DNA of 42,776 nt from a virus. The stretch is taken from positions 1 to 42,776 of IMG/VR virus record IMGVR_UViG_3300005326_000027; one strand, 5' to 3'. The notes under the pieces are model-generated. The model saw nothing but the letters and a program-made list of their open reading frames with translations. It had not been told where the DNA came from and searched no databases. Numbering within the stretch: position 1 is the first letter of the stretch; the number at the start of each line of letters is the position of its first letter. Below are positions 1,854-42,776 of the stretch, in pieces. Position numbers and translations under genes: made by a program.

Positions 1854-2387
1854 TTATACTCTATTACGTTTTCGCTTTTTTCCCAACAACTTCCTGCGCA
1901 GATTTTCTCTCCGATAACTTTCTCTTTTACATTCACGACAATAAGTATATTTAGCGTATCTCAAGATATCTTCCTCATTGGCAAGAAGATGCCTCTGTCT
2001 CCTACATTTTGAACCCACTGAAAGCTTATGCCCTAAACTACCGTTTCTCCAGCCTCCTCCACCGTTACGTTTGTATAAACCCATACTTTCTAGATATGAA
2101 ATACCCCGCTCAAGATTTACACGTAGAGAAACAGGTTCAAGGTGTTTTGGATTTACGCACGATGTGTTTCTGCATAGATGATCGATGACCAATCCGTTGG
2201 GGATGGTGTCTACAAAAAATTCATACGATGCTCTGTGTGCCATATATGTTTTGTATTTATATCCAAAACGTCCATATCCTTTAGAGTCTTTAGTGTGCAA
2301 CCATAGCCAACATTCTTTTTCTTCACCCACCCGAAAAAATCTTAAAAACCTTTGTAAAAAGCTGTCCGTCTTCCTATTTTTAAACAT
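1854..2387 (-). CDS. HNH homing endonuclease
   Basis: GYGRFGYK...AHRASYE...VIDHLCRNTSCVNPKHLE is typical of the phage HNH_3-type endonuclease signature. Confidence 0.8.
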   Translation of the reverse strand: MFKNRKTDSFLQRFLRFFRVGEEKECWLWLHTKDSKGYGRFGYKYKTYMAHRASYEFFVDTIPNGLVIDHLCRNTSCVNPKHLEPVSLRVNLERGISYLESMGLYKRNGGGGWRNGSLGHKLSVGSKCRRQRHLLANEEDILRYAKYTYCRECKRESYRRENLRRKLLGKKRKRNRV

Positions 2388-2486
2388 AAAACCCCAACTT
2401 AGACCGGAGATTCACCTTCGCAGATGAAGCCCCCGTCTAAAATGGGGTTTGGGGCGGTGTCCGGTCACGGATTTCTCCGTTCCACT

Positions 2487-2495
2487 AGTGTACCA
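2487..2495 (-). promoter_or_regulatory. Extended -10 promoter (TGgTACACT) for the HNH transcript, leaving a leader of about 90 nt
   Basis: The reverse complement of 2487-2495 reads TGGTACACT. It sits back-to-back with the plus-strand promoter at 2511. Confidence 0.4.
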
Positions 2496-2510
2496 TACTT
2501 TCGAACCCCG

Positions 2511-2519
2511 TGTTACAAT
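2511..2519 (+). promoter_or_regulatory. Extended -10 promoter (TGtTACAAT) 6 nt upstream of ATG 2526 (leaderless)
   Basis: tgttacaat followed by atatcc then ATG. Confidence 0.5.
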
Positions 2520-2525
2520 ATATCC

Positions 2526-2777
2526 ATGATAAAAGAATTTTCAAAAGAGCTTTTCAGTTCAAATCGCCTCAAGTCATATTTATGGCGTAGTGCTATGGCA
2601 GGAGTAGCGTATGGCCTCACGATTCTTGCTATTCAAATTCAAGCATGGCCAGCAACAGGGGACGCATCGGTAGCACTCTTCACGGCTATTGCACTTGGCC
2701 TAGGTGAGTTGTCAAAAGGCATCTCGAACTACCTTAAAAAAGAGGAAGAGGAAGGTGCTGGAGGTGGAATTGCGTAG
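2526..2777 (+). CDS. Small two-TM membrane protein with a charged C-terminus (holin-like topology)
   Basis: Hydrophobic stretches AMAGVAYGLTILAIQIQAW and ASVALFTAIALGLGEL, with tail KKEEEEGAGGGIA. The internal ATG was chosen over the longer ORF because of the adjacent promoter. Confidence 0.5.
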   Translation: MIKEFSKELFSSNRLKSYLWRSAMAGVAYGLTILAIQIQAWPATGDASVALFTAIALGLGELSKGISNYLKKEEEEGAGGGIA

Positions 2778-2826
2778 GAATCTTACATCTTCATAGGCAA
2801 TTTGTAGGATTCGGTATAAAGTCTAC

Positions 2827-2860
2827 ATGTGGAGTTTTCACTTTCTCCACATCTTTGTTT
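2827..2860 (+). terminator. Intrinsic terminator
   Basis: atgtggag (2827-2834) pairs with ctccacat (2845-2852), followed by ctttgttt. Confidence 0.6.
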
Positions 2861-2872
2861 GCAAACGCATTA

Positions 2873-2899
2873 AATCGCTTCTCGTGGAGGCGATTTTTT
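2873..2899. terminator. Second hairpin plus T-run, possibly bidirectional
   Basis: aatcgcttc ... gaggcgatt stem (one G-U pair) followed by tttttt at 2894-2899. Confidence 0.45.
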
Positions 2900-2934
2900 G
2901 TTTCTCTACTCTCGCCGTGAAGTGTTCGTAACCA

Positions 2935-3417
2935 TTACAGCCCTATCAAAATCATGCACTCAAGAATTGCATCGTGTAGCTTCTTTACCGTCCTTCCGCG
3001 AGCCACCAATAAGTAAAACTCTTCCTCACCAAGCCATTTTTTCATAAAAAGAGTGTAGCCGCCGTCGTACCCCTGATCTTCTTTCGTCTGCTTCTGATAT
3101 TCAAAGCCGAGTAGCTTACTTTTGAAATGGTGGAACCAACAGAGCGCAATACAGTTCTTTGGGTCATAGCGTGTAGCCTTGTGCGCTCGCCCTATGTAGT
3201 GGGAACATTGGAGTTTAGCTATCTCCACCACTTTACAGCCAGGGAACATGCATCGTCCGTCACGCTTGCGTATAAACAGGCTAAATTCGTCGTCAGTGGT
3301 GTCCATTGACCACAGTTGAGGTTTGGGTAGCTTTGAGGGTTTTTTAGTAACCTTGGGCTTTGTAGAGCGTGCTTTTCTTTTCCAAGCGGTCCTCTTTAAA
3401 CCCACCTTTCTTTGCAT
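2935..3417 (-). CDS. NinG/Rap-like structure-specific endonuclease
   Basis: FIRKRDGRCMFPGC...LQCSHYIGRAH..TRYDPKNCIALCWFHH matches my recollection of the lambda NinG cysteine/histidine pattern. Basic N-terminus. Confidence 0.55.
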   Translation of the reverse strand: MQRKVGLKRTAWKRKARSTKPKVTKKPSKLPKPQLWSMDTTDDEFSLFIRKRDGRCMFPGCKVVEIAKLQCSHYIGRAHKATRYDPKNCIALCWFHHFKSKLLGFEYQKQTKEDQGYDGGYTLFMKKWLGEEEFYLLVARGRTVKKLHDAILECMILIGL

Positions 3418-3423
3418 CTGTCA

Positions 3424-3434
3424 ATTATACCACG
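3424..3434 (-). promoter_or_regulatory. Extended -10 promoter CGTGGTATAAT, 6 nt upstream of ATG 3417 (leaderless)
   Basis: The reverse complement of attataccacg. Same motif as the plus-strand late promoters. Confidence 0.6.
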
Positions 3435-3470
3435 AAAAAACAGAAAACCGTCCTGTTACAGACGGCTTAC

Positions 3471-3845
3471 TTATTTTCTTCTTTCCCCAAAGATATATTT
3501 CTTTAATTTCCTATAGAAAAAGAAGGCAATCTTTTTAGAGAAACTCCCATTCTTAATAATTTGTCCAATTATTTTACTCCTTTTGGTTGCAATTTTTTGT
3601 TGAACGGCAAAGGAAGTTTTCGCCATCCGGTCACCTTTTTCTAAGATATCGTATCTCTTGAAATCACCGTTGTATCTTGCATAAACACGCCTCCAGAAAT
3701 CGTCCATATCTTTTACATAAAACATGATCCCCAAGTAACCGTTATTTTGGATTCTTGAATGGTCAATGAGGTACTGCCATAGCGCCTTTCTCTGATCTTC
3801 GGTAAATGTTTCAGAGAAATCACGCCAAGAGTTTAACTTGTTCAT
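3471..3845 (-). CDS. Hypothetical protein
   Basis: 124-aa ORF with an ATG start on the early strand. Confidence 0.55.
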   Translation of the reverse strand: MNKLNSWRDFSETFTEDQRKALWQYLIDHSRIQNNGYLGIMFYVKDMDDFWRRVYARYNGDFKRYDILEKGDRMAKTSFAVQQKIATKRSKIIGQIIKNGSFSKKIAFFFYRKLKKYIFGERRK

Positions 3846-3884
3846 TTACTTTTTTATTACTACAACCGAGAAGGTTGTTTTGTT

Positions 3885-4013
3885 TCATTTCCCAAACGTC
3901 AAATACTCATCCTTACAAAGTCTATCGGGGCAAAAGTCTCCTAAAGAAACGTCCAACATGTTGGCGCCACACAACTTGCACTTTGGGTATACTTCTTCGA
4001 TTGTTTGTACCAT
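3885..4013 (-). CDS. Zinc-ribbon miniprotein (42 aa)
   Basis: Hand translation: MVQTIEEVYPKCKLCGANMLDVSLGDFCPDRLCKDEYLTFGK*. Confidence 0.4.
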   Translation of the reverse strand: MVQTIEEVYPKCKLCGANMLDVSLGDFCPDRLCKDEYLTFGK

Positions 4014-4146
4014 TTTTTTATTCTTTAAGCGGTACTCTATAGGGGAACTGTTCCCCACCCTTCTACTGCGGACATGTTCGGGCTAAACCGATAGTTGTTA
4101 CAGGTATTTCGCCATGCTAGCTGTGCTTTTTATGCACGCATGAGAA

Positions 4147-4318
4147 GAGTGAGGAACTGTGAGGAGCAGATACCCCCGTTCTAGGCTTGGCCAACTTACG
4201 ACATCCAGAGGGGCTTCCACCACGTCTGGTTGCACCTAGAACCGCAGGGCGTATCCACTCCCCACACCAAGTGGGGTACAGATTGTCCCCTACTTGACGT
4301 TATTTTATCACCTCACTC
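4147..4318 (-). ncRNA. Candidate structured RNA element A (unclassified): five nested helices forming a rod
   Basis: Complementary pairs: 4147-4154/4311-4318, 4158-4166/4258-4266 (a G-U pair only on the minus strand), 4169-4173/4251-4255, 4178-4185/4235-4242 and 4205-4209/4225-4229. No minus-strand ORF. Confidence 0.5.
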
Positions 4319-4693
4319 ATCTTTCTTGTAGTTATTGTGGAGGGAGTCGATGGCCCTAGAAGTGTCAGCAATACCTTCTCGCCAGCCGTCGTGTCCTCTG
4401 TCCATGTCATTTTCACAGCCTTCTTTACATTTCAGGTCGTCCACCACTCCCTTCGCTGCTTCAAGAGCTGAACGATAGCCTGTTTTCACTCCTTCTTCGA
4501 AGAGATGAGTGCTTTGTTTTCCAGTAACTTCTTGGAGTGTAGCGATACGGGCTGAGGAGTATGCCATATCCCATGTTGCGTTTATAATCTCAGCCACTTT
4601 TCTTCTCATCGGCTCATAGAGAGGCCCCATTCCCTCGGTGTCTTTTTCAAAACCCCCCAGCATCTCCCCCTTGGTTTTATAGTGTTGTGTCAT
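4313..4693 (-). CDS. Hypothetical protein
   Basis: 126-aa ORF, ATGA-coupled to the upstream gene. Confidence 0.6.
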   Translation of the reverse strand: MTQHYKTKGEMLGGFEKDTEGMGPLYEPMRRKVAEIINATWDMAYSSARIATLQEVTGKQSTHLFEEGVKTGYRSALEAAKGVVDDLKCKEGCENDMDRGHDGWREGIADTSRAIDSLHNNYKKDE

Positions 4694-4986
4694 TGGGTGA
4701 GTTTCTCTGCCTTACTAATCCTCCTTCTACCCCAACTTGCAGAGGTCTTTAGTTGCTCCTCTTTGGAAAGACTACTGTAAGTATCTTTTGCATAACGTGC
4801 CCACTCAAGAAATGCTTTTTCATGACCAGATGTCACAATTTTTTCGGCCACATCTGGCGCGTAGGCTCCGACGTCCCATACTCTTTTTTTGTACCAAGAG
4901 GCAACGTTCCTTAAACCAAGCCAGTAGCACGCTTGCGCTATGGCGTGGGCTTTTTCCATTTGCTGCATGTTTTGGATTTTTTCCAT
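4690..4986 (-). CDS. Hypothetical protein
   Basis: 98-aa ORF. Confidence 0.55.
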   Translation of the reverse strand: MEKIQNMQQMEKAHAIAQACYWLGLRNVASWYKKRVWDVGAYAPDVAEKIVTSGHEKAFLEWARYAKDTYSSLSKEEQLKTSASWGRRRISKAEKLTQ

Positions 4987-5050
4987 ACCTTACGTGTTAT
5001 GTGATGCTAATTCTCCCTCACCTTTCTCTCTAAGGGATAGGGGGGGGGAG

Positions 5051-5353
5051 TTACTGTAGTTTTTCATCACCTATCCACTCGAATCGTTCCAACTCGTATG
5101 TTTTACCGTTTGCGTGGCAGACGAGGTCAATTAAATAATTACCTTCCACCGATGTAATACCGTTGTGTTTCATACAGATGGCAATTGCACGATAAAGACC
5201 ATTTCCAATTGCACCTGTTGCTTCGGCGGAAATCATATCTTCCTTTGACCACGTTTTTACAAGTGTCACAGGTGTTGTACCACGCCACGAGAGATAGGTG
5301 AGTCCTCCCGCACCTATGAGAATACCAAGCAGAATAAGCAGTGCGTTTTTCAT
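5051..5353 (-). CDS. N-terminally membrane-anchored or secreted small protein
   Basis: N-terminus MKNALLILLGILIGAGGLTYL. Confidence 0.55.
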   Translation of the reverse strand: MKNALLILLGILIGAGGLTYLSWRGTTPVTLVKTWSKEDMISAEATGAIGNGLYRAIAICMKHNGITSVEGNYLIDLVCHANGKTYELERFEWIGDEKLQ

Positions 5354-5881: not shown

Positions 5882-6217
5882 TTAATTGTGTTTGTATTCT
5901 TCTTCACCACGTTTGTAGATGCGTTTGCAAGTTCGTAGAATTTCGAGAAGTGTTGCGTGCGCTCGCTCTGCTTCTTTATAGGTTCGATGTTCTTCTGTGG
6001 CTTCACTTCGCAATTTACCTTCCGCAACAGACTTTGAAGAGGTCAAGAGTTCGAGCTTCTTTACGTTGTACTCATGCTCTCGTGCCGTGAGTACCGTAGC
6101 GATGTTGGCAAGAATAGCGGTAGCTTGCACCAAGAGTCCTTCGGCAATTACGGGAGTGAGGGTATCTGGTCGTTCTTGGTGTAGCTGATACAGTGCCAAA
6201 AACTTGTTGTAGTTCAT
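5882..6217 (-). CDS. Hypothetical coiled-coil protein
   Basis: 111-aa ORF with a TAATG overlap to the upstream gene. Confidence 0.55.
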   Translation of the reverse strand: MNYNKFLALYQLHQERPDTLTPVIAEGLLVQATAILANIATVLTAREHEYNVKKLELLTSSKSVAEGKLRSEATEEHRTYKEAERAHATLLEILRTCKRIYKRGEEEYKHN

Positions 6218-6873
6218 TAGAATGGACTATCTGCAAACGGATCTTTAAGTATTTCCTTTGGATAGCCACCTAGGCCTCCTACTTTCACCGTCTCGTTAGG
6301 GTCTGATTCACCTTGATTCATCATTGACTGATATTCCTGTGAGGACATTACTTTCTCTTTAATAAAGTTTGGAAGTTTATCAAAGTATTCCTGATCCCAG
6401 TTTTGGTAGGTCTGAATACGAGAAGGATTAACTTGTGCGGGCTTCTCCATGCCTTTCATTAAAGGCGAGGTTGAGGCGATGCGTGCGTAGGTATTCCCCT
6501 TAGCGTTAGTCTTGTGAATGATGTTTAAGAGGCAGGACTTTCCCACAAGAGACTCTACATCGAAGTGCTCCGCATCGTGGTCTGACATTTTTCCCATCAT
6601 GCCCTCTACAATTTTTCGTAGGTTAGACTTTTCACCGAAAGAAAGTGTGTACTCTTCGGAGATAACTCGTGGCTGTGGGCCGTTCTCTTGTTTGAATACA
6701 TGGAGTTCGTTAGGAAGCTCCCAGGTGAGGCGTATTTTAGCAGTATCACGGGCGATACCTTCGTATGAATCAGGAATAGTACCAATGAAGAGGAAATTGT
6801 AGAGCGTGGCGATGTGTGTTCCTGCTGTAATTTCTTGAATGTCTCGTTTCATTACTGGTGCAAATGTTGGCAT
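6217..6873 (-). CDS. Hypothetical protein, possibly SSB-like
   Basis: 218-aa ORF. The C-terminal tail ...KDPFADSPF resembles the acidic D-x-P-F tips of ssDNA-binding proteins. There is no other support. Confidence 0.5.
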   Translation of the reverse strand: MPTFAPVMKRDIQEITAGTHIATLYNFLFIGTIPDSYEGIARDTAKIRLTWELPNELHVFKQENGPQPRVISEEYTLSFGEKSNLRKIVEGMMGKMSDHDAEHFDVESLVGKSCLLNIIHKTNAKGNTYARIASTSPLMKGMEKPAQVNPSRIQTYQNWDQEYFDKLPNFIKEKVMSSQEYQSMMNQGESDPNETVKVGGLGGYPKEILKDPFADSPF

Positions 6874-6937
6874 TTTGGTTGTTTTATTTTGTTTAATAAG
6901 TACCTCTAGTATGGCTCTAATTAGCCATATTGTCTAG

Positions 6938-7096
6938 TTATTCGCACGTTCGGTCTATCTCTTTTCTAAGTTGATATATCTCTCCGATCTCCAGAATCAT
7001 CTCGAGATCGTCACGGTGAAAAATGTAGTACTTTTTTCCATGAGTCACTCCATCCCTAAACTCTTCCCGAATCTCTATCCTTATTTCTTTTTCCAT
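6938..7096 (-). CDS. Hypothetical small protein
   Basis: ATG 7096 preferred, because the 7183 start in the ORF track is a TTG. Confidence 0.4.
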   Translation of the reverse strand: MEKEIRIEIREEFRDGVTHGKKYYIFHRDDLEMILEIGEIYQLRKEIDRTCE

Positions 7097-7368: not shown

Positions 7369-7524
7369 TTAGGCCTCCAGAGCGTCTATATCGCTCACCA
7401 TGCCTCGTAGTTCATCACAGGTAGGGCAACCTACCACCTCGCCACATTCCTCCTTCCTGTGAAGATTCCAGAGGAGGTCAATTTTCTTAATCATTTCTTG
7501 TTTGTTTTGGTTTAGTGTTTGCAT
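7369..7524 (-). CDS. Cys-containing miniprotein (51 aa)
   Basis: Internal ATG avoids overlap with 7550..7774. Motif ECGEVVGCPTC. Confidence 0.45.
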   Translation of the reverse strand: MQTLNQNKQEMIKKIDLLWNLHRKEECGEVVGCPTCDELRGMVSDIDALEA

Positions 7525-7549
7525 AGTTTTGTTTGTTTTAAGTGTTTTG

Positions 7550-7774
7550 TTAGTCCTGTTCAGCTTGGGCGATTTTAGATACCGCTTCCGCTTCTTCTTC
7601 AAAGTGCTTCTCCAGTTCTTCTTCATGTCGGATGCGTAGGTTCATGGAAGCGTCTATGGCTTCTGAAACACGCTGTAGCTGTTCTTCAAAGTTCTTTTTT
7701 GCTTCGAGCATGTTGTGAAAGACCACATAAATCTCTTCTTCTCGTTCTCGCCAAAGTTGTAATGTTTTGTCCAT
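7550..7774 (-). CDS. Acidic coiled-coil miniprotein
   Basis: 74-aa ORF. Confidence 0.5.
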   Translation of the reverse strand: MDKTLQLWREREEEIYVVFHNMLEAKKNFEEQLQRVSEAIDASMNLRIRHEEELEKHFEEEAEAVSKIAQAEQD

Positions 7775-7814
7775 GTTTGTTTGTGTTACTTTTTTACTCG
7801 CTAATGAGCAGGGC

Positions 7815-8078
7815 GGAGCTTACGGGGGACTGATCACCCACCAGATTTCTCTGATGAATAAACCCCACAAGCTCCACAATGCTCACTAACCGTTTAGGTT
7901 GTGAGTGCCGTCTCTTCGCTCCACTTCCCTTTTTCGTTTCTCCGTAGAGAATCTAACCAAGAAGTGGTGGCGGTAGAGGTCGCGTGCCTGATTTCCAGGT
8001 GGGGAACGGAGAGGTAATTAATCTCTCGAAGTCTTTGCGGGAGTTGAACCCGCCAGTCACCGGACTCAGACCTTCCCC
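7815..8078 (-). ncRNA. Candidate structured RNA element B (unclassified)
   Basis: Helices: 7815-7819/7871-7875, 7882-7891/7897-7905, 7921-7927/7961-7967 and 8001-8006/8073-8078. Hairpins: UACG-loop at 7939-7950, GAAA-loop at 7840-7855, 8009-8027, 8055-8066 and a T-loop-like hairpin at 8037-8053. No ORF. Confidence 0.5.
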
Positions 8079-8160
8079 CATCCAGAAACCAAGCTATTGA
8101 ATTGTCGAAGTGCTGCGTCCCGTACCTTGTGTATACTTTAGCAAATCATCGTGCGCTAGG

Positions 8161-8538
8161 TCAAGTGTTATCAACCTTACAATCTGTGAATAGTGGACAT
8201 TCTTTCGTACAGATACTTTCGGGAACATCCTCTGGGTTTGGGTGATTGTGTCCTGGCCCAAAGGCTGCTGAGTAATCACCCGTCACTATTTTCTTTGTTA
8301 AATACCTCAGTTTCTCTTCTGCTTTTGCCTCGATCTGCCGGATTCTCTCACGTGTCACACCAAACTTCTGGCCCGTTCGTTCCAGGGAGTTCCATTCTAT
8401 GAGTCGGTAGTACATCACATCGCGCTCTTTTTCGGATAAGTCGCCCGCTCCTTGTGCTAGGTCAAGCATCTCGACGATATTTCCGCGGGAAGAGACTAAC
8501 ATTTGTTTCCACTCGTGGTATGTGAATTGATTTTCCAT
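8161..8538 (-). CDS. Sigma-70 region-4 (HTH) domain protein, no recognisable region 2
   Basis: LSEKERDVMYYRLIEWNSLERTGQKFGVTRERIRQIEAKAEEKLR is a typical sigma region 4.2 signature. Confidence 0.7.
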   Translation of the reverse strand: MENQFTYHEWKQMLVSSRGNIVEMLDLAQGAGDLSEKERDVMYYRLIEWNSLERTGQKFGVTRERIRQIEAKAEEKLRYLTKKIVTGDYSAAFGPGHNHPNPEDVPESICTKECPLFTDCKVDNT

Positions 8539-10257: not shown

Positions 10258-11370
10258 TTATGACTTCTTAGATACTAATAATTCGTTTGTTGTTTGGTGC
10301 CGAAGTTTTGCAACTGTTTCAAGAGCGTTTGTGCTTTCTGGTGGTACAAACTTTATATATTCCTTCGCTGAACTCCACCCCGAATAGGCAAGAACTTTGC
10401 ACGTTCCGATTCCTTTGAGATTTAGTTCCCATAAATCGTATCCGCCGCACTCGTCAGAATGATCTACCAGTGTTTTTTGTACTGTTTCAAGCAACTCCTT
10501 GATTGGTCGCTCACGTAGAAGTGCTGAACGCTGGTCGATGTCCTCCCAGGCAATAATGTCTGTAATAGTGGCTGTTTGAGACTTCTTGAACTGCTCTTCG
10601 GTGAATTTTACCCCGTGGATGTAAAAAACTTCTGCTCCACCCTTCCAGTGAATTGCCGGACCATTTGTTGAATGGAAGCGATTTTCCACATCTATTTTTA
10701 CAAGGGGTGTAGGAACTAAGTACAAAGTGTCTTCGTACTCAACTCTGTAACCAAGTCCTGCTTCCTTTGCCTGCATGAGAAGTTCACAGTATTTGAGATA
10801 TTTCTTATCATGTTCATTTACTGGAAAATCTGAATCTGGATTTTCGCAATACTCGTGTTCGATTACAAACCAGTCGAAATCATAGTCTAGTGCGCTCCCT
10901 GCGCTCCGTGCGCTCCGTGCGCTCCGTGCGCTCCATGCGCTCCATGCGCTCCGTGCGCTCCCTGCGCTCCGTGCGCTCCATGCGCTCCGTGCGCTCCATG
11001 CGCTCCGTGCGCTCCCTGCGCTCCCTGCGCTCCCTGCGCTCCGTGCGCTCCGTGCGCTCCATGCGCTCCCTGCGCTCCCTGCGCTCCCTGCGCTCCATGC
11101 GCTCCATGCGCTCCCTGCGCTCCGTGCGCTCCCTGCGCTCCCTGCGCTCCGTGCGCTCCATGCGCTCCCTGCGCTGTCGATAGCATCTACGAATTTCTTT
11201 TCAAAGATGTCTTTATACCAAACCACTTTTTTTGGCCGTGGTAGATCAAAAAGATCGTAGGTTTTAAGAATGAGTTCCTCGCTCAGTTTTTTGTCGAGAA
11301 CAAAGTCTTCACGTTCTACATTGCGGCACTGACGTTCTATTAAATCTGCTGTTTTTTGTGAATAATCCAT
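10258..11370 (-). CDS. Repeat-containing protein: N-terminal region, 31 x S-A-[G/W/R], and a conserved-looking C-terminal domain
   Basis: 370-aa ORF. The C-terminal motif [24 protein letters not shown] resembles, from memory, the DUF6745-type family. This is unverified. Confidence 0.65.
10891..11175. repeat. 31.7 tandem copies of the 9-bp unit TGCGCTCCN, where N is C, G or A only
   Basis: Counted directly: N is C x12, G x11, A x8 and T x0. All other positions are invariant and all six frames are open. Confidence 0.95.
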
Positions 11371-11412: not shown

Positions 11413-11589
11413 CTAAAAGTCCATGAGATCCTCTGGCAACTTCAAACCTAACTGCTCATAGATAGCTTTACGCTCTACATCAATCTTGGCACGCATGTCG
11501 GGTGGTATGGCTGGTGCTATACCTTCTCTGTACTGCTTGGCTCTCTGCTCACGAGTCCAGTTGTCGGCGATTGTTTCTTTGTTGCTCAT
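11413..11589 (-). CDS. Hypothetical miniprotein (58 aa)
   Basis: ATG 11589 is ATGA-coupled to the upstream stop. Confidence 0.5.
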   Translation of the reverse strand: MSNKETIADNWTREQRAKQYREGIAPAIPPDMRAKIDVERKAIYEQLGLKLPEDLMDF

Positions 11590-11861
11590 AGTTTTTTTAT
11601 CTTTAACGATCCGAAGAAGCACTTACTAAAACCACTTTTTGAACTTTTACAGATACTTAGAAGGTAATACAAGTCGTGTTTTGATAAATGACTCGTCTTA
11701 ATTGCAATAGCTCTTCCTGTTACAGGCTTCCACTTTGTATTTTTCCTTTCTACGTTAATCGTTTCTACAAACTCTTGAACCAAACTCGCGCGTTCACTAT
11801 TCGCTCCACTTTTCTTTTTTTGAATTTCTTGCGTCGGCAAAAGATCAAAGAGAGATTTCAT
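11586..11861 (-). CDS. Hypothetical protein
   Basis: 91-aa ORF. Confidence 0.55.
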   Translation of the reverse strand: MKSLFDLLPTQEIQKKKSGANSERASLVQEFVETINVERKNTKWKPVTGRAIAIKTSHLSKHDLYYLLSICKSSKSGFSKCFFGSLKIKKL

Positions 11862-11899
11862 ACTTTTTTAGTTCTTTCCTTAACTCTAACTCATGTAAG

Positions 11900-12484
11900 T
11901 ACAGTTCTCCCATTACCCTAGAATGAATGCAGTAGTGGGCTGGAGTTCTGAGTATGTAGTTTTCTCTGTTGCCACTGTCATGCAGATACCCTCCGTACCA
12001 CCCTTTGTTACTTCGTTAAGCGTGGTAGTTCTTTTAATCTCATGCAGTAGCTGAATGTCTACGGTGCATATCAGACGGCAGGGAGGTAATGGGAGAACCT
12101 TTTCCCCTGCTTTCGCATATGCACCTTAGAATCCTTTATTTATTTACGCGCCACAGGAACGATATGTGGGACGTTGTACCGGAATGCAGTTTTACTTCAT
12201 GCCACCGAAAAGAAGGATCGAGAGAACGTTGTTTGCATGAACATTAAGAACAGAGTACGGGTGGCAACGATTTGACGAGAGTGACAGGACCCGAACCTGC
12301 GCAAGGGCAACCCTTTCGGGATTCGGTACCAACTCCTCATTACGCCAACACTAACTCGTATAGTCACGTTGCATGAGTGGCTCTTGGATGTTGCAGCTTG
12401 CCATAACATCTTCCACTGCAAGCGAGAGTCTACCTATTCCTCCACACCCGTACTCCGTCCTCAAAGTTCTTTGGGGCTTGTATT
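11900..12484 (-). ncRNA. Candidate large structured RNA element C (unclassified)
   Basis: Pairings: a 14-nt perfect long-range complement at 11904-11917/12085-12098, 9 bp at 12063-12071/12117-12125, 12079-12083/12105-12109, and 12387-12392/12405-12410. Two GAAA-loop hairpins (about 12109-12116 and 12311-12320) and a T-loop-like hairpin at 12284-12300 (a G-U pair only on the minus strand). Confidence 0.5.
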
Positions 12485-12519
12485 AAAACAGAAAACCCCG
12501 CGCTGATTAGGCCACGGAG
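12485..12519 (-). terminator. Intrinsic terminator or attenuator about 75-100 nt downstream of the promoter at 12597-12625
   Basis: Minus strand CUCCGUG (12519..12513) pairs with CGCGGGG (12502..12496), followed by UUUUCUGUUUU. Confidence 0.5.
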
Positions 12520-12596
12520 TTTCTGGGGTCCACCTTGCGACGGACTTTATGAAAACTTAGTCTAATCAGTTCACTATTGCAAGTAGTGATATGAAT

Positions 12597-12625
12597 AGTA
12601 TATCTATTGACAGAAAAACGTACAA
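12597..12625 (-). promoter_or_regulatory. Sigma-70-type promoter TTGTAC-17 nt-TATACT
   Basis: The -35 is the reverse complement of 12620-12625 and the -10 is the reverse complement of 12597-12602, with a 17-nt spacer. Confidence 0.5.
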
Positions 12626-12654
12626 TCCAAAATAAGGGGATAAGTTGGGGACAA

Positions 12655-12975
12655 CTAGTAGAACCTCTCACCACGTTTTACCGCTACCTTTTCGGGTAGA
12701 ACAGGTATAGCGAGCTTTTTTCTTCCAATCTTCTCACTAGCCTCTTGGGTACTTCTGTAAATTGCACGATACGACAGCCACGCCTTTTCACACGGTGACT
12801 TTTTTCTATCAATGACCCCACATACATACGTCCTGGCTCTTCTTTCCTTGTGTACATCGTACCTCACCAACTCTTTCCCACACCAGATACAAACAGCCTC
12901 CATACGCTTGTTTATTTTATTCTTAGCTGGCCTTCCATTCTCATCTACTAACAAAAAGTAGTCGCCAAGTTTCAT
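12655..12975 (-). CDS. Zinc-ribbon protein (106 aa), first gene of the early arm
   Basis: ATG 12975 chosen because of the adjacent extended -10. Motif CIWCGK...C...C. Confidence 0.55.
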   Translation of the reverse strand: MKLGDYFLLVDENGRPAKNKINKRMEAVCIWCGKELVRYDVHKERRARTYVCGVIDRKKSPCEKAWLSYRAIYRSTQEASEKIGRKKLAIPVLPEKVAVKRGERFY

Positions 12976-12981
12976 ATTCTT

Positions 12982-12990
12982 ATTAAAGCA
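12982..12990 (-). promoter_or_regulatory. Extended -10 (TGcTTTAAT) 6 nt upstream of ATG 12975 (leaderless)
   Basis: Reverse complement of 12982-12990. Confidence 0.45.
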
Positions 12991-13131
12991 CGAAAACCAC
13001 ATCACTGTGGTTCTCACGCACACTCACATCCCTGCGAGCCTAGCTTCTCGAAAGAAAGCTGGAAACAATACCACCGTTCTGATAGACAATCTTGTGGCGG
13101 TACTGCATGGGGTATTGTAGAATAAAAGCAG

Positions 13132-13668
13132 ATGAAAAAGTATTCAGTCGTGTATGCAGATCCACCGTGGAGTTACAACGACAAGATGTCGGGTCACTCA
13201 TTTTCTTTAGACCACGAATATAAAACACAGAGCAAAGAATGGATCAGTTCTCTTTCTGTGGGCAGTATCTCCGCAAAAGATAGCGTTCTCTTTCTGTGGG
13301 CAGTATCTCCGCAACTGCCAGAGGCCCTCCAAGTGATGAAAGATTGGGGCTTTAAGTATGTAACAGTAGCATTTTGTTGGAGCAAGAATCATAAAAGTGG
13401 AAAGAAGGTCAAGAATCTCGGTAGGTGGACGATGGGCAACGTTGAGGTATGCCTTCTGGGTAGAAAAGGCCGACCACAAAGATTGGTTAAAAACGTTCGT
13501 CAGTTAGTAGAAGCGGAACGTACTCGACATTCGCAAAAACCAGCAGAAGTACGAAATAGAATTGTAGAACTCATGGGAGATATTCCACGGATCGAACTTT
13601 TCGCTAGAGAGAAAACAGAGGGTTGGGATGTATGGGGAAATGAGGTGGAAAGTGATATAGAAATGTGA
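13132..13668 (+). CDS. MT-A70 family DNA N6-adenine methyltransferase
   Basis: YADPPWSY (the DPPW catalytic motif), then VLFLWAV, WGFKYVT, HSQKP and ELFAREKTEGWDVWGNEV. This is the canonical family order. Confidence 0.85.
   Translation: MKKYSVVYADPPWSYNDKMSGHSFSLDHEYKTQSKEWISSLSVGSISAKDSVLFLWAVSPQLPEALQVMKDWGFKYVTVAFCWSKNHKSGKKVKNLGRWTMGNVEVCLLGRKGRPQRLVKNVRQLVEAERTRHSQKPAEVRNRIVELMGDIPRIELFAREKTEGWDVWGNEVESDIEM
13247..13314. repeat. Perfect 30-bp direct repeat (13247-13276 and 13285-13314, period 38) inside the methyltransferase CDS
   Basis: gttctctttctgtgggcagtatctccgcaa occurs twice. Copy 1 is read as SSLSVGSISA and copy 2 as VLFLWAVSPQ. Confidence 0.95.
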
Positions 13669-42620: not shown

Positions 42621-42776
42621 ATGACCACAGAACCCTATTACGACAGCGAGCATGAAGTAATAGAGAAAAATGTTCCAGGTGGACTTCTTGACCTTCCTTT
42701 TGACGGAAATGATTACGCCCTGGGTTCTATTTTTAAACAGCCTGACCTCTCTACTCTCCCAGAATCCTTTTGGTAC
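42621..42776 (+). CDS. 5' part of the papain-like peptidase gene, continuing at position 124 through the repeat (same gene as 1..891)
   Basis: ATG at 42621: MTTEPYYDSEH then EVIEKNVPGG.... It is in phase with frame 1 at position 1. Confidence 0.7.
   Translation, partial: MTTEPYYDSEHEVIEKNVPGGLLDLPFDGNDYALGSIFKQPDLSTLPESFWY
42654..42776. repeat. Terminal direct repeat copy 2 (identical to 1..123)
   Basis: Same comparison as for copy 1. Confidence 0.95.

Follow-up and report, generated by a model that had tools for sequence, protein, structure and literature searches.

Phages P1 and P7 (c4) and phage P4 (CI) carry leader-embedded antisense RNAs, and the early mRNA of phage T7 carries RNase III hairpins. 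Wide conservation and covariation are the defining traits of known ornate RNAs. According to Hartmann et al. 1995, as cited in PMC4919922, the phage regulatory RNA c4 derives from a leader and is processed by RNase P, and large ornate RNAs (GOLLD, ROOL, OLE, raiA) are carried by some phages and bacteria (PMC12286853, PMC5737381). Here we analyse a gene-free stretch of 793 nt (11862-12654, minus strand), which may represent an untranslated structured RNA or leader. It lies on the early-gene arm of a phage of 42.6 kb, whose host is probably a member of the Patescibacteria; the window is the whole 42.8-kb (42,776-nt) stretch of DNA that was analysed. Our preferred reading, held with somewhat less than even confidence, is that this segment may be a lineage-specific, structured untranslated leader of an early transcript.

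The segment is non-coding. Across 11862-12654, every one of the six frames is interrupted by 9-15 stop codons, the small ORFs within it have negative codon-usage scores in every frame, and reassignment of a single stop codon (TGA or TAG) opens no gene-like frame. The two neighbouring ORFs of 91 and 106 aa have positive, frame-specific codon-usage signals, so this scoring tells spurious ORFs inside the segment apart from real neighbours. Six-frame translations of the segment showed no similarity to Pfam or PHROGs, and blastx against 16,715 ORFs of 225 related loci gave no match. The preliminary description had called positions 11900-12484 ORF-poor, and this claim is borne out for the full segment, which holds no credible ORF in any frame. 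The HTH_36 protein of a relative, whose 798-nt gene is close to the gap in length, gave no tblastn signal in the segment. A decayed-gene (pseudogene) reading was rejected, as stop maps, Pfam and PHROG searches, blastx and tblastn were all without signal.

Downstream on the minus strand lies a 91-aa gene (11586-11861), the first conserved early gene, which has homologues in other phages and in Patescibacteria genomes; free-standing homologues 85-99 aa long align with it over its whole length. Upstream, also on the minus strand, a 106-aa ORF (12655-12975) encodes a basic, cysteine-containing protein (CxxC ... C ... C), ends at its own stop codon and is probably coding, judging from its frame-specific codon signal. 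Searches of 5.8 billion and of 1.84 billion proteins with this ORF retrieved no protein other than its own, and it had no match in the PDB, NCBIfam or other family searches; its AF2 model (pLDDT 45) was left out of the analysis. Together with an MT-A70 methylase gene, the 793-nt spacer and its two neighbours, the 91-aa gene and the orphan 106-aa ORF, constitute what we term a lineage-specific junction cassette, positioned at the divergent junction of the early and late arms. The closest relative, L069 (GroEL 86% identical), has a different cassette at the segment's position, consisting of a 102-aa gene, a 265-aa HTH_36 gene and a 561-nt intergenic spacer, and in a second relative, L169, the 91-aa homologue sits directly at the divergent junction with a spacer of only 86 nt and the segment is absent. 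Absence from both relatives and the orphan state of the neighbouring 106-aa ORF favour the reading of the segment as functionless filler, that is, recently acquired or decayed DNA whose hairpins come from chance or inverted duplications, which we judge unlikely, though less so than the other rival readings. The lack of residual similarity to protein families or to the related-phage ORFs speaks against filler, and a 42.6-kb phage genome rarely retains 793 idle bases, which we also count against it. As an argument for function, which is how the preliminary description used it, tight genome packing is weak because the segment belongs to the mosaic junction cassette, which differs between relatives.

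The exchange of the segment against the HTH_36 protein and 561-nt intergenic region of L069 would also suit a DNA-level element, namely a replication origin or a regulatory or partition region in which the repeats serve as protein-binding or cruciform sites. Among the window proteins scanned, none was recognised as the product of a replication gene, a further point for such an element; no RNA polymerase gene was seen in the phage, and the largest early ORF encodes a 370-aa repeat protein with a weak DUF6745 match. We regard a DNA-level element as improbable, because iterons and tandem repeats are absent (direct repeats of 9-16 nt occur only as scattered pairs), DnaA-box-like sites occur at chance level with none in the region, and the segment is not AT-rich (GC 0.45-0.48).

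Self-complementarity of the segment is above chance. All four perfect pairings listed in the preliminary description are exact: a 14-nt pair (11904-11917/12085-12098, 14/14), a 9-bp helix (12063-12071/12117-12125, 9/9), a 5-bp helix (12079-12083/12105-12109, 5/5) and a 6-bp helix (12387-12392/12405-12410, 6/6). Perfect inverted repeats of 14, 11 and 9 nt in the region exceed those of dinucleotide shuffles; in 200 such shuffles the longest perfect inverted repeat was 13 nt and never 14, and the probabilities of at least two repeats of at least 11 nt and of at least three of at least 9 nt were 0.01 and 0.015. When inverted repeats were counted genome-wide from an 11-nt seed, with no more than 300 nt between the arms, the segment, 1.9% of the genome, held two of the eight best. 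Both this concentration and the excess over shuffles (P ~0.01) argue against functionless filler. The strongest feature, missed in the preliminary description, is a 25-position helix (12239-12263/12445-12469) that encloses 181 nt. Perfect Watson-Crick repeats make up the three longest helices, and such repeats suit a DNA-level or recently made repeat equally well as an RNA helix; perfect Watson-Crick inverted repeats count in favour of a DNA-level element, and perfect 14-, 11- and 9-nt repeats free of G-U pairs look young, which counts in favour of filler.

We compared folding with shuffled controls, and the segment and both of its sub-domains fold better than the shuffles. Over the full 793 nt the two strands are equal (z = -3.0 minus, -3.1 plus), as a DNA-level element would allow. 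The minus strand is favoured in the two best-folding domains, with z = -3.88 against -2.00 on the plus strand at 11895-12135 and -3.99 against -2.39 at 12230-12480 (200 shuffles each); the local z of window 12050-12199 is -4.1. Within the second of these regions, the 231-nt domain closed by the 25-position helix has a folding energy of -92.8 kcal/mol on the minus strand versus -77.1 kcal/mol on the plus strand, and the helix itself has 21 Watson-Crick pairs on either strand, its other positions being 3 G-U pairs and 1 mismatch on the minus strand and 4 mismatches on the plus strand. A duplex-DNA site predicts neither G-U pairs on one strand nor minus-favoured domains, and the strand asymmetry of the G-U pattern likewise argues against filler. 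In the 5' 175 nt of the segment it is the plus strand that folds better.

Against the genome background these z-scores are moderate and not exceptional. An unbiased scan of 177 non-overlapping 240-nt windows gave a background standard deviation of ~1.5, and window 11895-12134 ranked 6th of 177; several coding windows score alike, which is again a point for functionless filler. An untranslated minus-strand segment at 7775-8160, conserved in the closest relative, reaches z = -5.69 versus -1.76 on the plus strand and is a stronger structured RNA candidate than 11862-12654. Rfam at E <= 10 returned nothing credible on 7500-8300. Windows 6855-7094 and 12855-13094 likewise fold well, and strongly structured stretches such as these indicate that structured RNA on the early strand is a habit of this genome.

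In the predicted minus-strand fold, domain A is a hairpin at 12058-12130 with 26-nt arms that are 81% complementary and include the perfect 9-bp and 5-bp helices. Its pair probability is 0.97-1.0, its asymmetric internal loop holds GCGAAAGC, and its apical loop presents the 5′ partner of the 14-nt complementarity, GUUCUCCCAUUACC (12085-12098, minus strand), of which the central 9 nt are unpaired. The 3′ partner, GGUAAUGGGAGAAC (11904-11917, minus strand), lies in a weakly structured stretch and is itself unpaired in the centroid. It precedes the AUG of the 91-aa gene by 43-56 nt and follows its loop partner at a distance of ~170 nt; a genome search allowing up to 2 mismatches found it nowhere else. 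The start codon region of the 91-aa gene lies outside this target site. The 14-nt duplex has an energy of -23.4 kcal/mol. The same pairing had been taken to suggest a pseudoknot or long-range contact, and the pseudoknot as drawn is not supported. In a nested fold the pairing competes and is incompatible with the domain A hairpin; enforcing it costs +5.3 kcal/mol, and geometric reasoning makes a full 14-bp pseudoknot from a loop of ~19 nt sterically doubtful.

Domain B is a predicted multibranch structure of 231 nt (12239-12469, minus strand) closed by the 25-position helix, whose 11-bp core has p = 0.98-1.0. Inside it on the same strand lie the exact 6-bp hairpin at 12387-12410 (pair probability ~0.75) and a CCGAAUC/GGUUCGG helix at 12290-12327, in which 6 of 7 pairs have p = 0.93-1.0. 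The latter helix displaces two hairpins of the preliminary description, the T-loop-like one at 12284-12300 and the CCC-GAAA-GGG one at 12311-12320, each of which has a pair probability of 0.0 in the thermodynamic ensemble; by eye, the T-arm-like loop UUCGGGU also departs from the UUCRANY consensus at position 58. The GAAA at 12109-12116, proposed as a second tetraloop hairpin, has a stem of only 2 bp and sits in the internal loop of the long hairpin. Inspection by eye found no 11-nt GNRA tetraloop receptor motif in the segment. Towards the 5′ end, a hairpin at 12503-12569 (minus strand) is formed by an 8-bp CUGAUUAG/CUAAUCAG helix that encloses a 7-bp GCAA-loop hairpin (12528-12545), and in this 5′ part the minus strand folds no better than the plus strand (z ~ -2.0 to -2.6 on both).

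Database comparison suggests that the segment is an orphan, with no match to Rfam families and no carrier among the relatives searched. Rfam cmscan of the whole window at the gathering threshold gave 0 matches, and at E <= 10 the interval 11700-12800 gave three chance-level matches only (a snoRNA, a mt-5S-like RNA and a miRNA). The covariance models of GOLLD, ROOL, OLE, raiA and HEARO left the segment unmatched, and a link to GOLLD, ROOL or other large ornate RNAs is not supported. RNase P, tmRNA and introns were without an Rfam match in the segment, Intron_gpI, Intron_gpII, group-II-D1D4 and C4 gave no match at E <= 10, and ARAGORN found 0 tRNA or tmRNA genes in the window, where Rfam likewise returned no tRNA or tmRNA match. 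A self-splicing intron was considered and rejected, the flanking ORFs being separate complete genes and not exons, and the catalytic core being unmatched.

Searches for homologues covered phage collections, metagenomes and synteny loci, the last comprising TerL relatives (51), GroEL relatives (160, plus L001-L003, L069-L072 and L230-L232) and loci of the 91-aa protein. Blastn against INPHARED phages, nhmmer and blastn against ~2.4 Mb of related phage DNA, and cmsearch of 2.06 Mb with a single-sequence covariance model of domain B found no homologue. The many homologues with covarying pairs that mark ornate RNAs were not found by blastn, nhmmer or cmsearch. Exact 20-/21-mer scans of IMG/VR, JGI metagenomes and GTDB genomes gave zero matches, a weak negative because the scanned metagenome collection evidently lacks the short JGI contig that carries the sequence. 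No second copy of the segment was found in the genome, in the 2.4 Mb of relatives or, by scanned 21-mers, in public collections. That the segment is an orphan in every search also favours functionless filler.

Divergence from a known class (an intron, a tmRNA or tRNA-like RNA, RNase P RNA, a riboswitch, a retron msr-msd or a MITE) is largely refuted and, in our estimate, very improbable. The T-arm resemblance of GCAGGUUCGGGUCCUGU and the inverted repeats that delimit two units, of ~195 and 231 nt, in a way that recalls retron a1/a2 stems or MITE ends, would fit it; the negative Rfam and ARAGORN results and the completeness and separateness of the flanking genes tell against it. No reverse transcriptase domain occurs in the flanking and early ORFs scanned, as a retron would have led one to expect, and a MITE is opposed by the lack of a target-site duplication (by eye) and of a second copy.

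The size of the segment, its multi-domain fold and its long-range helices would suit an autonomous stable RNA of ~0.6-0.8 kb, a new class on a par with the large ornate RNAs of some phages, with a role in trans or in a ribonucleoprotein, possibly with the 106-aa protein. Also consistent with it are the raised GC (0.476 in 12001-12500 versus 0.396 and 0.420 in the flanking 500-nt windows), three minus-strand GNRA-type sequences (GAAA twice and GCAA), two of which are not predicted as tetraloop hairpins, and inheritance as one cassette with the orphan basic ORF. We consider this reading unlikely, since there is no Rfam match even at E <= 10, no conservation of the kind seen in known ornate RNAs, zero ensemble probability for the T-loop hairpin and one GAAA hairpin, and only a moderate z-score. 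Between the segment and the 91-aa gene the minus strand showed no terminator-like site, which further counts against an autonomous RNA and fits the giant leader that the preliminary description had offered as its alternative. That the segment would specify a new lineage-restricted CPR-phage RNA, present as a discrete stable species, perhaps bound by the 106-aa protein and acting in trans on functions of the host or the phage, we hold to be slightly less probable still.

For a structured untranslated leader, we infer transcription, the strand used and any regulatory outcome. Of the earlier interpretation, a structured RNA or a giant leader, the non-coding status, the self-complementarity and the minus-biased domains stand, and a tie to known large RNAs is not supported. 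In the proposed mechanism, the segment would be the untranslated, strongly base-paired part of a minus-strand early transcript and would precede the 91-aa gene as a long leader or as an intercistronic spacer. The RNA would fold into at least two autonomous domains, the 231-nt multibranch structure and the very stable irregular hairpin, whose apical loop would expose 9 nt of a 14-nt sequence perfectly complementary to a downstream site. Pairing of loop and target, either within the molecule or in trans after processing, could switch the leader between two folds predicted to differ by only ~5 kcal/mol, and this switch may control the downstream early operon through its read-through, cleavage or stability, in a mode like that of the P1/P7 c4 and P4 CI leader antisense RNAs or the T7 early-mRNA RNase III hairpins. 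On the other side of the ledger for a leader are the absence of a homologue in any search, the lack of the segment in L069, the equality of the strands over the full length and the plus-strand preference of the 5' 175 nt. Further points against it are z-scores within the genome background, the perfect Watson-Crick nature of the three longest helices, the position of the target away from the start codon, the missing Rfam C4 match and the lack of promoter-like or terminator-like sites that would delimit a transcript.

Promoter and terminator scans of the region gave counts at or below chance, no site delimits a transcript, and no sigma-70-like promoter site was found in the segment; promoter candidates seen by eye near 12600 fail the scan criteria. 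Contigs of two public assemblies break at window positions 12555-12582. A shared mobile segment or genome ends at these breaks were not kept as explanations, and a coverage gap is simpler because the assemblies are probably of the same sample and all contigs there are only 1-3.5 kb.

Patescibacteria are not culturable alone, and the biology of their phages is nearly unknown. If the fold is real and functional, the segment would be among the first regulatory RNAs described for Patescibacteria phages, and pairing between its hairpin loop and target would extend RNA control of an early programme beyond the P1/P4 and T7 paradigms. Were the RNA instead autonomous, it would imply, with 7775-8160, that CPR phages carry an ornate non-coding RNA repertoire outside Rfam. 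As a single-sequence candidate, the segment has its main value as a target for transcript mapping and deeper homology search, and it points to the stronger neighbouring candidate at 7775-8160.

Set beside the described systems, the segment shares with large ornate RNAs the 0.6-0.8 kb length class, a multi-domain fold, long-range helices and a phage location, and differs from them in having no covariance-model match or homologues, moderate z-scores and no adjacent tRNAs. A speculative comparison is with the ColE1 RNA II pre-primer, which it would resemble as a structured untranslated stretch of ~550-800 nt in a replicon with no recognised initiator protein, lying where relative L069 has an HTH_36 protein; unlike ColE1, it has no detectable antisense RNA I-like promoter arrangement and no similarity in INPHARED. 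There is no sequence relationship to T7, and the phage is unrelated and has divergent early and late arms. As in T7 early mRNA, the first conserved early gene follows several hundred bases of non-coding sequence, the irregular hairpin of ~70 nt with an internal loop (12058-12130, 81% paired) resembles T7 RNase III sites, which are intercistronic hairpins of about two helical turns with an internal loop, and further intercistronic hairpins lie on the same strand as the segment. Compared with c4 and CI, the segment is ~10 times longer and has no Rfam C4 match, its target site lies outside the ribosome-binding region, and a tRNA-like feature that could attract RNase P is unsupported. Like c4 and CI, it is untranslated and lies in front of an early or regulatory operon, and within it the loop of a stable predicted hairpin (p ~1) is complementary at 14 of 14 positions to a downstream site on the same putative transcript.

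The 793-nt segment at 11862-12654, between a 106-aa ORF (12655-12975) and a 91-aa gene (11586-11861) on the minus strand, is truly non-coding. Every frame holds 9–15 stop codons, no single stop-codon reassignment opened a gene-like frame, and the short ORFs in all frames have non-ATG starts or negative codon-usage scores; both flanking ORFs score positively and in a frame-specific manner. Six-frame translations of the segment gave no match in Pfam or PHROGs, and blastx against 16,715 ORFs of related loci recovered the flanking genes only. Together, these results bear out the preliminary description of a gap with no credible minus-strand gene, and show no recognisable pseudogene.

The complete, circularly assembled phage genome measures 42,653 bp (window positions 42654-42776 repeat bases 1-123). 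The minus strand carries small genes of unknown function, an HNH endonuclease gene and a sigma-like gene at ~1.6-13.0 kb, and the plus strand from 13,132 onward encodes an MT-A70 methylase, an SLT lysozyme-like protein, a GroEL-like chaperonin, the large terminase, and capsid and tail proteins, a layout that makes "early strand" a reasonable label for the minus strand. The GroEL-like protein marks a large family of ~42 kb phages (1,168 matches at E ≤ 1e-30). Among cellular genomes, only those of Patescibacteria (CPR), including Zambryskibacteria, Parcubacteria and Minisyncoccia, carry homologues of the 91-aa early protein, and one GroEL relative bears a Patescibacteria label; together these make a CPR bacterium the probable host. 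A C-terminal motif, F(S/R)(K/R)CFFGSLK, is conserved in the 91-aa protein. Its homologues in Patescibacteria chromosomes (loci L010-L015 and L233-L247; 42–58% identity) are flanked by mreB and a def-fmt fusion gene wherever the locus is fully annotated. It is a small protein common to phage and host, and offers a hint to the host.

Self-complementarity and folding of the segment moderately exceed chance. Each complementarity in the preliminary description is exact, and the largest helix, overlooked there, spans 25 positions (12239-12263/12445-12469) and encloses 181 nt. When the 793 nt were dinucleotide-shuffled 200 times, the longest perfect inverted repeats had a mean of 7.9 nt, none being as long as 14 nt, and two repeats of at least 11 nt or three of at least 9 nt arose in 1% and 1.5% of shuffles, respectively. 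Only eight inverted repeats in the genome combine an 11-nt seed with arms separated by no more than 300 nt, and the first and third on this list fall in the segment (1.9% of the sequence). Minimum free energy of the full segment against shuffles gives z −3.0 on the minus strand and −3.1 on the plus strand. The z values of the segment and its domains have to be weighed against the genome background: an unbiased scan over 177 non-overlapping 240-nt windows gave a z standard deviation of ~1.5, with 11895-12134 in sixth place and comparable z in several coding windows. Both well-folding domains favour the minus strand: domain A (hairpin 12058-12130, scored as 11895-12135) has z −3.88 on the minus versus −2.00 on the plus strand, and domain B (12239-12469, scored as 12230-12480) has z −3.99 versus −2.39 and folding energies of −92.8 versus −77.1 kcal/mol. 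The 25-position helix has four imperfections, three of which form G-U pairs when read as minus-strand RNA and become A-C mismatches on the plus strand. The 5′ 175 nt (12480-12654) fold slightly better as plus strand, and the strand signal is therefore limited to 11895-12480. Functionless filler, an unlikely account, would agree with the orphan status of the segment and with its perfect, G-U-free short repeats but leaves both the inverted-repeat excess and the strand asymmetry unexplained.

Several local structures proposed earlier do not stand. The T-loop-like stem at 12284-12300 and the CCC-GAAA-GGG hairpin at 12311-12320 each have probability 0.0 in the Boltzmann ensemble, their place being taken by a CCGAAUC/GGUUCGG helix with six of seven pairs at p = 0.93–1.0, and the GAAA at 12109-12116, claimed as a tetraloop hairpin, sits in an internal loop. 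For the 14-nt pair (12085-12098 with 11904-11917), the exact complementarity stands but the pseudoknot as drawn does not: the 14-bp helix and the 9-bp hairpin are mutually exclusive in a nested fold, and forcing the former costs +5.3 kcal/mol. By our own geometric reasoning, a static pseudoknot with a full 14-bp helix out of a ~19-nt loop is implausible; a partial loop–target contact or an alternative fold is plausible.

Rfam 15 at gathering thresholds gave no match across the whole genome, the segment region returned only three matches at E ≤ 10, all at chance level, and ARAGORN found neither tRNA nor tmRNA. The proposed cmscan, covering GOLLD, ROOL, raiA, introns, tmRNA and RNase P, thus yielded no family. 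As far as current models see, the segment therefore lies outside GOLLD, ROOL, OLE, raiA and HEARO, and likewise outside group I/II introns, tmRNA, RNase P RNA, riboswitches and the C4 antisense family; a large ornate RNA of the GOLLD/ROOL kind finds no support, and a diverged known class is essentially excluded. Size and domain architecture would suit an autonomous large non-coding RNA or ribonucleoprotein, but with neither conservation, transcript boundaries nor a family match this is improbable.

Comparative evidence is where the case is weakest: no homologue of the segment emerged from blastn against 50,697 phage records, from exact 20- and 21-mer scans of IMG/VR, JGI metagenomes and GTDB genomes, from nhmmer and blastn against ~2.4 Mb around relatives of TerL, GroEL and the 91-aa protein, or from a covariance model search with domain B. 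The only further copies are 100% identical contigs, probably from one sample. The closest relative, L069 (a 43,064-bp contig with 86% identical GroEL), keeps the flanking 59-aa gene and SLT and carries between them another cassette formed by a 102-aa gene, a 265-aa HTH_36 gene and a 561-nt intergenic region. In L169, another family member, the early genes begin with the 91-aa homologue, at only 86 nt from the divergent junction. For the 106-aa ORF of the window, searches of 5.8 billion and 1.84 billion proteins gave no homologue. Taken together, this suggests that the segment and the 106-aa orphan entered the mosaic junction cassette as a lineage-specific insertion. The exchange for an HTH_36 cassette, in a genome where no replication gene was recognised among the proteins scanned, would also suit a DNA-level origin or regulatory element; we consider this doubtful, as iterons, DnaA boxes and an AT-rich stretch were not found and the G-U asymmetry speaks for RNA.

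Other junctions and contigs offer separate observations. The 561-nt early/late intergenic region of L069 (6582-7142) is structured too, its z being −3.80 for the early strand and −2.50 for the opposite one. It includes a clear intrinsic-terminator-like hairpin with a U tract behind it, and its sequence is not similar to that of the window segment. L230, a relative with 63% GroEL identity, has 2.8 kb with no called genes directly upstream of its chaperonin operon (2264-5072), probably missing gene calls rather than a non-coding region because minus-strand ORFs of 88–160 aa are present. Contigs identical to the window in two public assemblies (L004-L007; ENA ERZ27247099 and JGI 3300029959, probably the same sample) start or stop within a 28-nt AT-rich stretch at 12555-12582 and overlap by only 7–28 nt; a gap in coverage or physical ends of the genome could account for these breaks.

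A second, stronger structured non-coding segment of 386 nt on the minus strand (7775-8160), between the sigma-like gene and a 74-aa gene, supports the view that structured early-strand RNA is in use in this genome. It has z −5.69 (−140.8 kcal/mol) on the minus versus −1.76 on the plus strand, has no Rfam or ARAGORN match, and is partly conserved in L069 (4835-5057; nhmmer E = 4e-11), where the outer helix arms are 100% conserved, another hairpin replaces the tRNA-like insert and the homologous stretch folds with z −7.05. This element merits at least as much attention as the 793-nt segment. It contains a ~20-bp helix with several G-U pairs, closed around a tRNA-like three-way element whose T arm is of textbook form (GCGGG-UUCAACU-CCCGC, about 8047-8063), and a long hairpin at 7800-7890. 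A promoter-like site occupies 8164-8135. The best non-repeat folding z of the genome scan falls at 6855-7094 (minus strand, −5.98 versus −2.72 plus), which overlaps a ~52-aa small ORF and two 7-bp hairpins immediately upstream of gene 6217-6873. The 370-aa gene (10258-11370), whose repeat protein weakly matches DUF6745, holds ~40 copies of a 9-nt unit encoding tripeptide repeats at 10828-11229, giving a trivially extreme z of −8.4. The MT-A70 gene (13132-13668) contains a perfect 30-nt direct repeat (13247-13276 and 13285-13314) whose 38-nt period is no multiple of three, so that the methylase gene reads its 30 bases in two different frames, first as SLSVGSISA and then as VLFLWAVSPQ. Both copies recur in contigs L004 and L005. 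Because losing one copy would shift the frame, the repeat could be a phase-variation-like on/off switch; alternatively, it could be an old, compensated duplication.

Overall, the segment is a real feature and was for the most part accurately described; its earlier interpretation finds partial support, and the reading that fits best is a structured untranslated RNA or a leader made from the early strand. We tentatively favour the view that the segment forms a structured, untranslated stretch of the early transcript preceding the 91-aa gene, and infer a regulatory function for it from sequence and predicted fold. A terminator scan found no minus-strand terminator-like site between segment and gene, and the segment would be transcribed as the leader upstream of it. 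Domain A, a very stable ~70-nt hairpin, is predicted to keep CUCCCAUUA unpaired in its apical loop, which would present the middle of the 14-nt complement of 11904-11917. This target lies 43–56 nt upstream of the AUG of the 91-aa gene and is unpaired in the centroid; the 14-nt duplex has an energy of −23.4 kcal/mol, and only 5.3 kcal/mol separate the alternative nested fold from the minimum. Pairing of the loop-presented antisense sequence with its target would then switch the leader between the two folds.

The irregular hairpin of domain A resembles T7 RNase III sites. The proposed leader shares its layout with P4 CI, an antisense regulator presented in a loop within a phage leader. The same layout recurs in P1/P7 c4, described as a loop-presented antisense regulator embedded in a phage leader (Hartmann et al. 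1995, as cited in PMC4919922). Because the C4 antisense family gave no Rfam match to the segment at E ≤ 10, the likeness is one of action rather than membership: the leader would work like c4 and CI.
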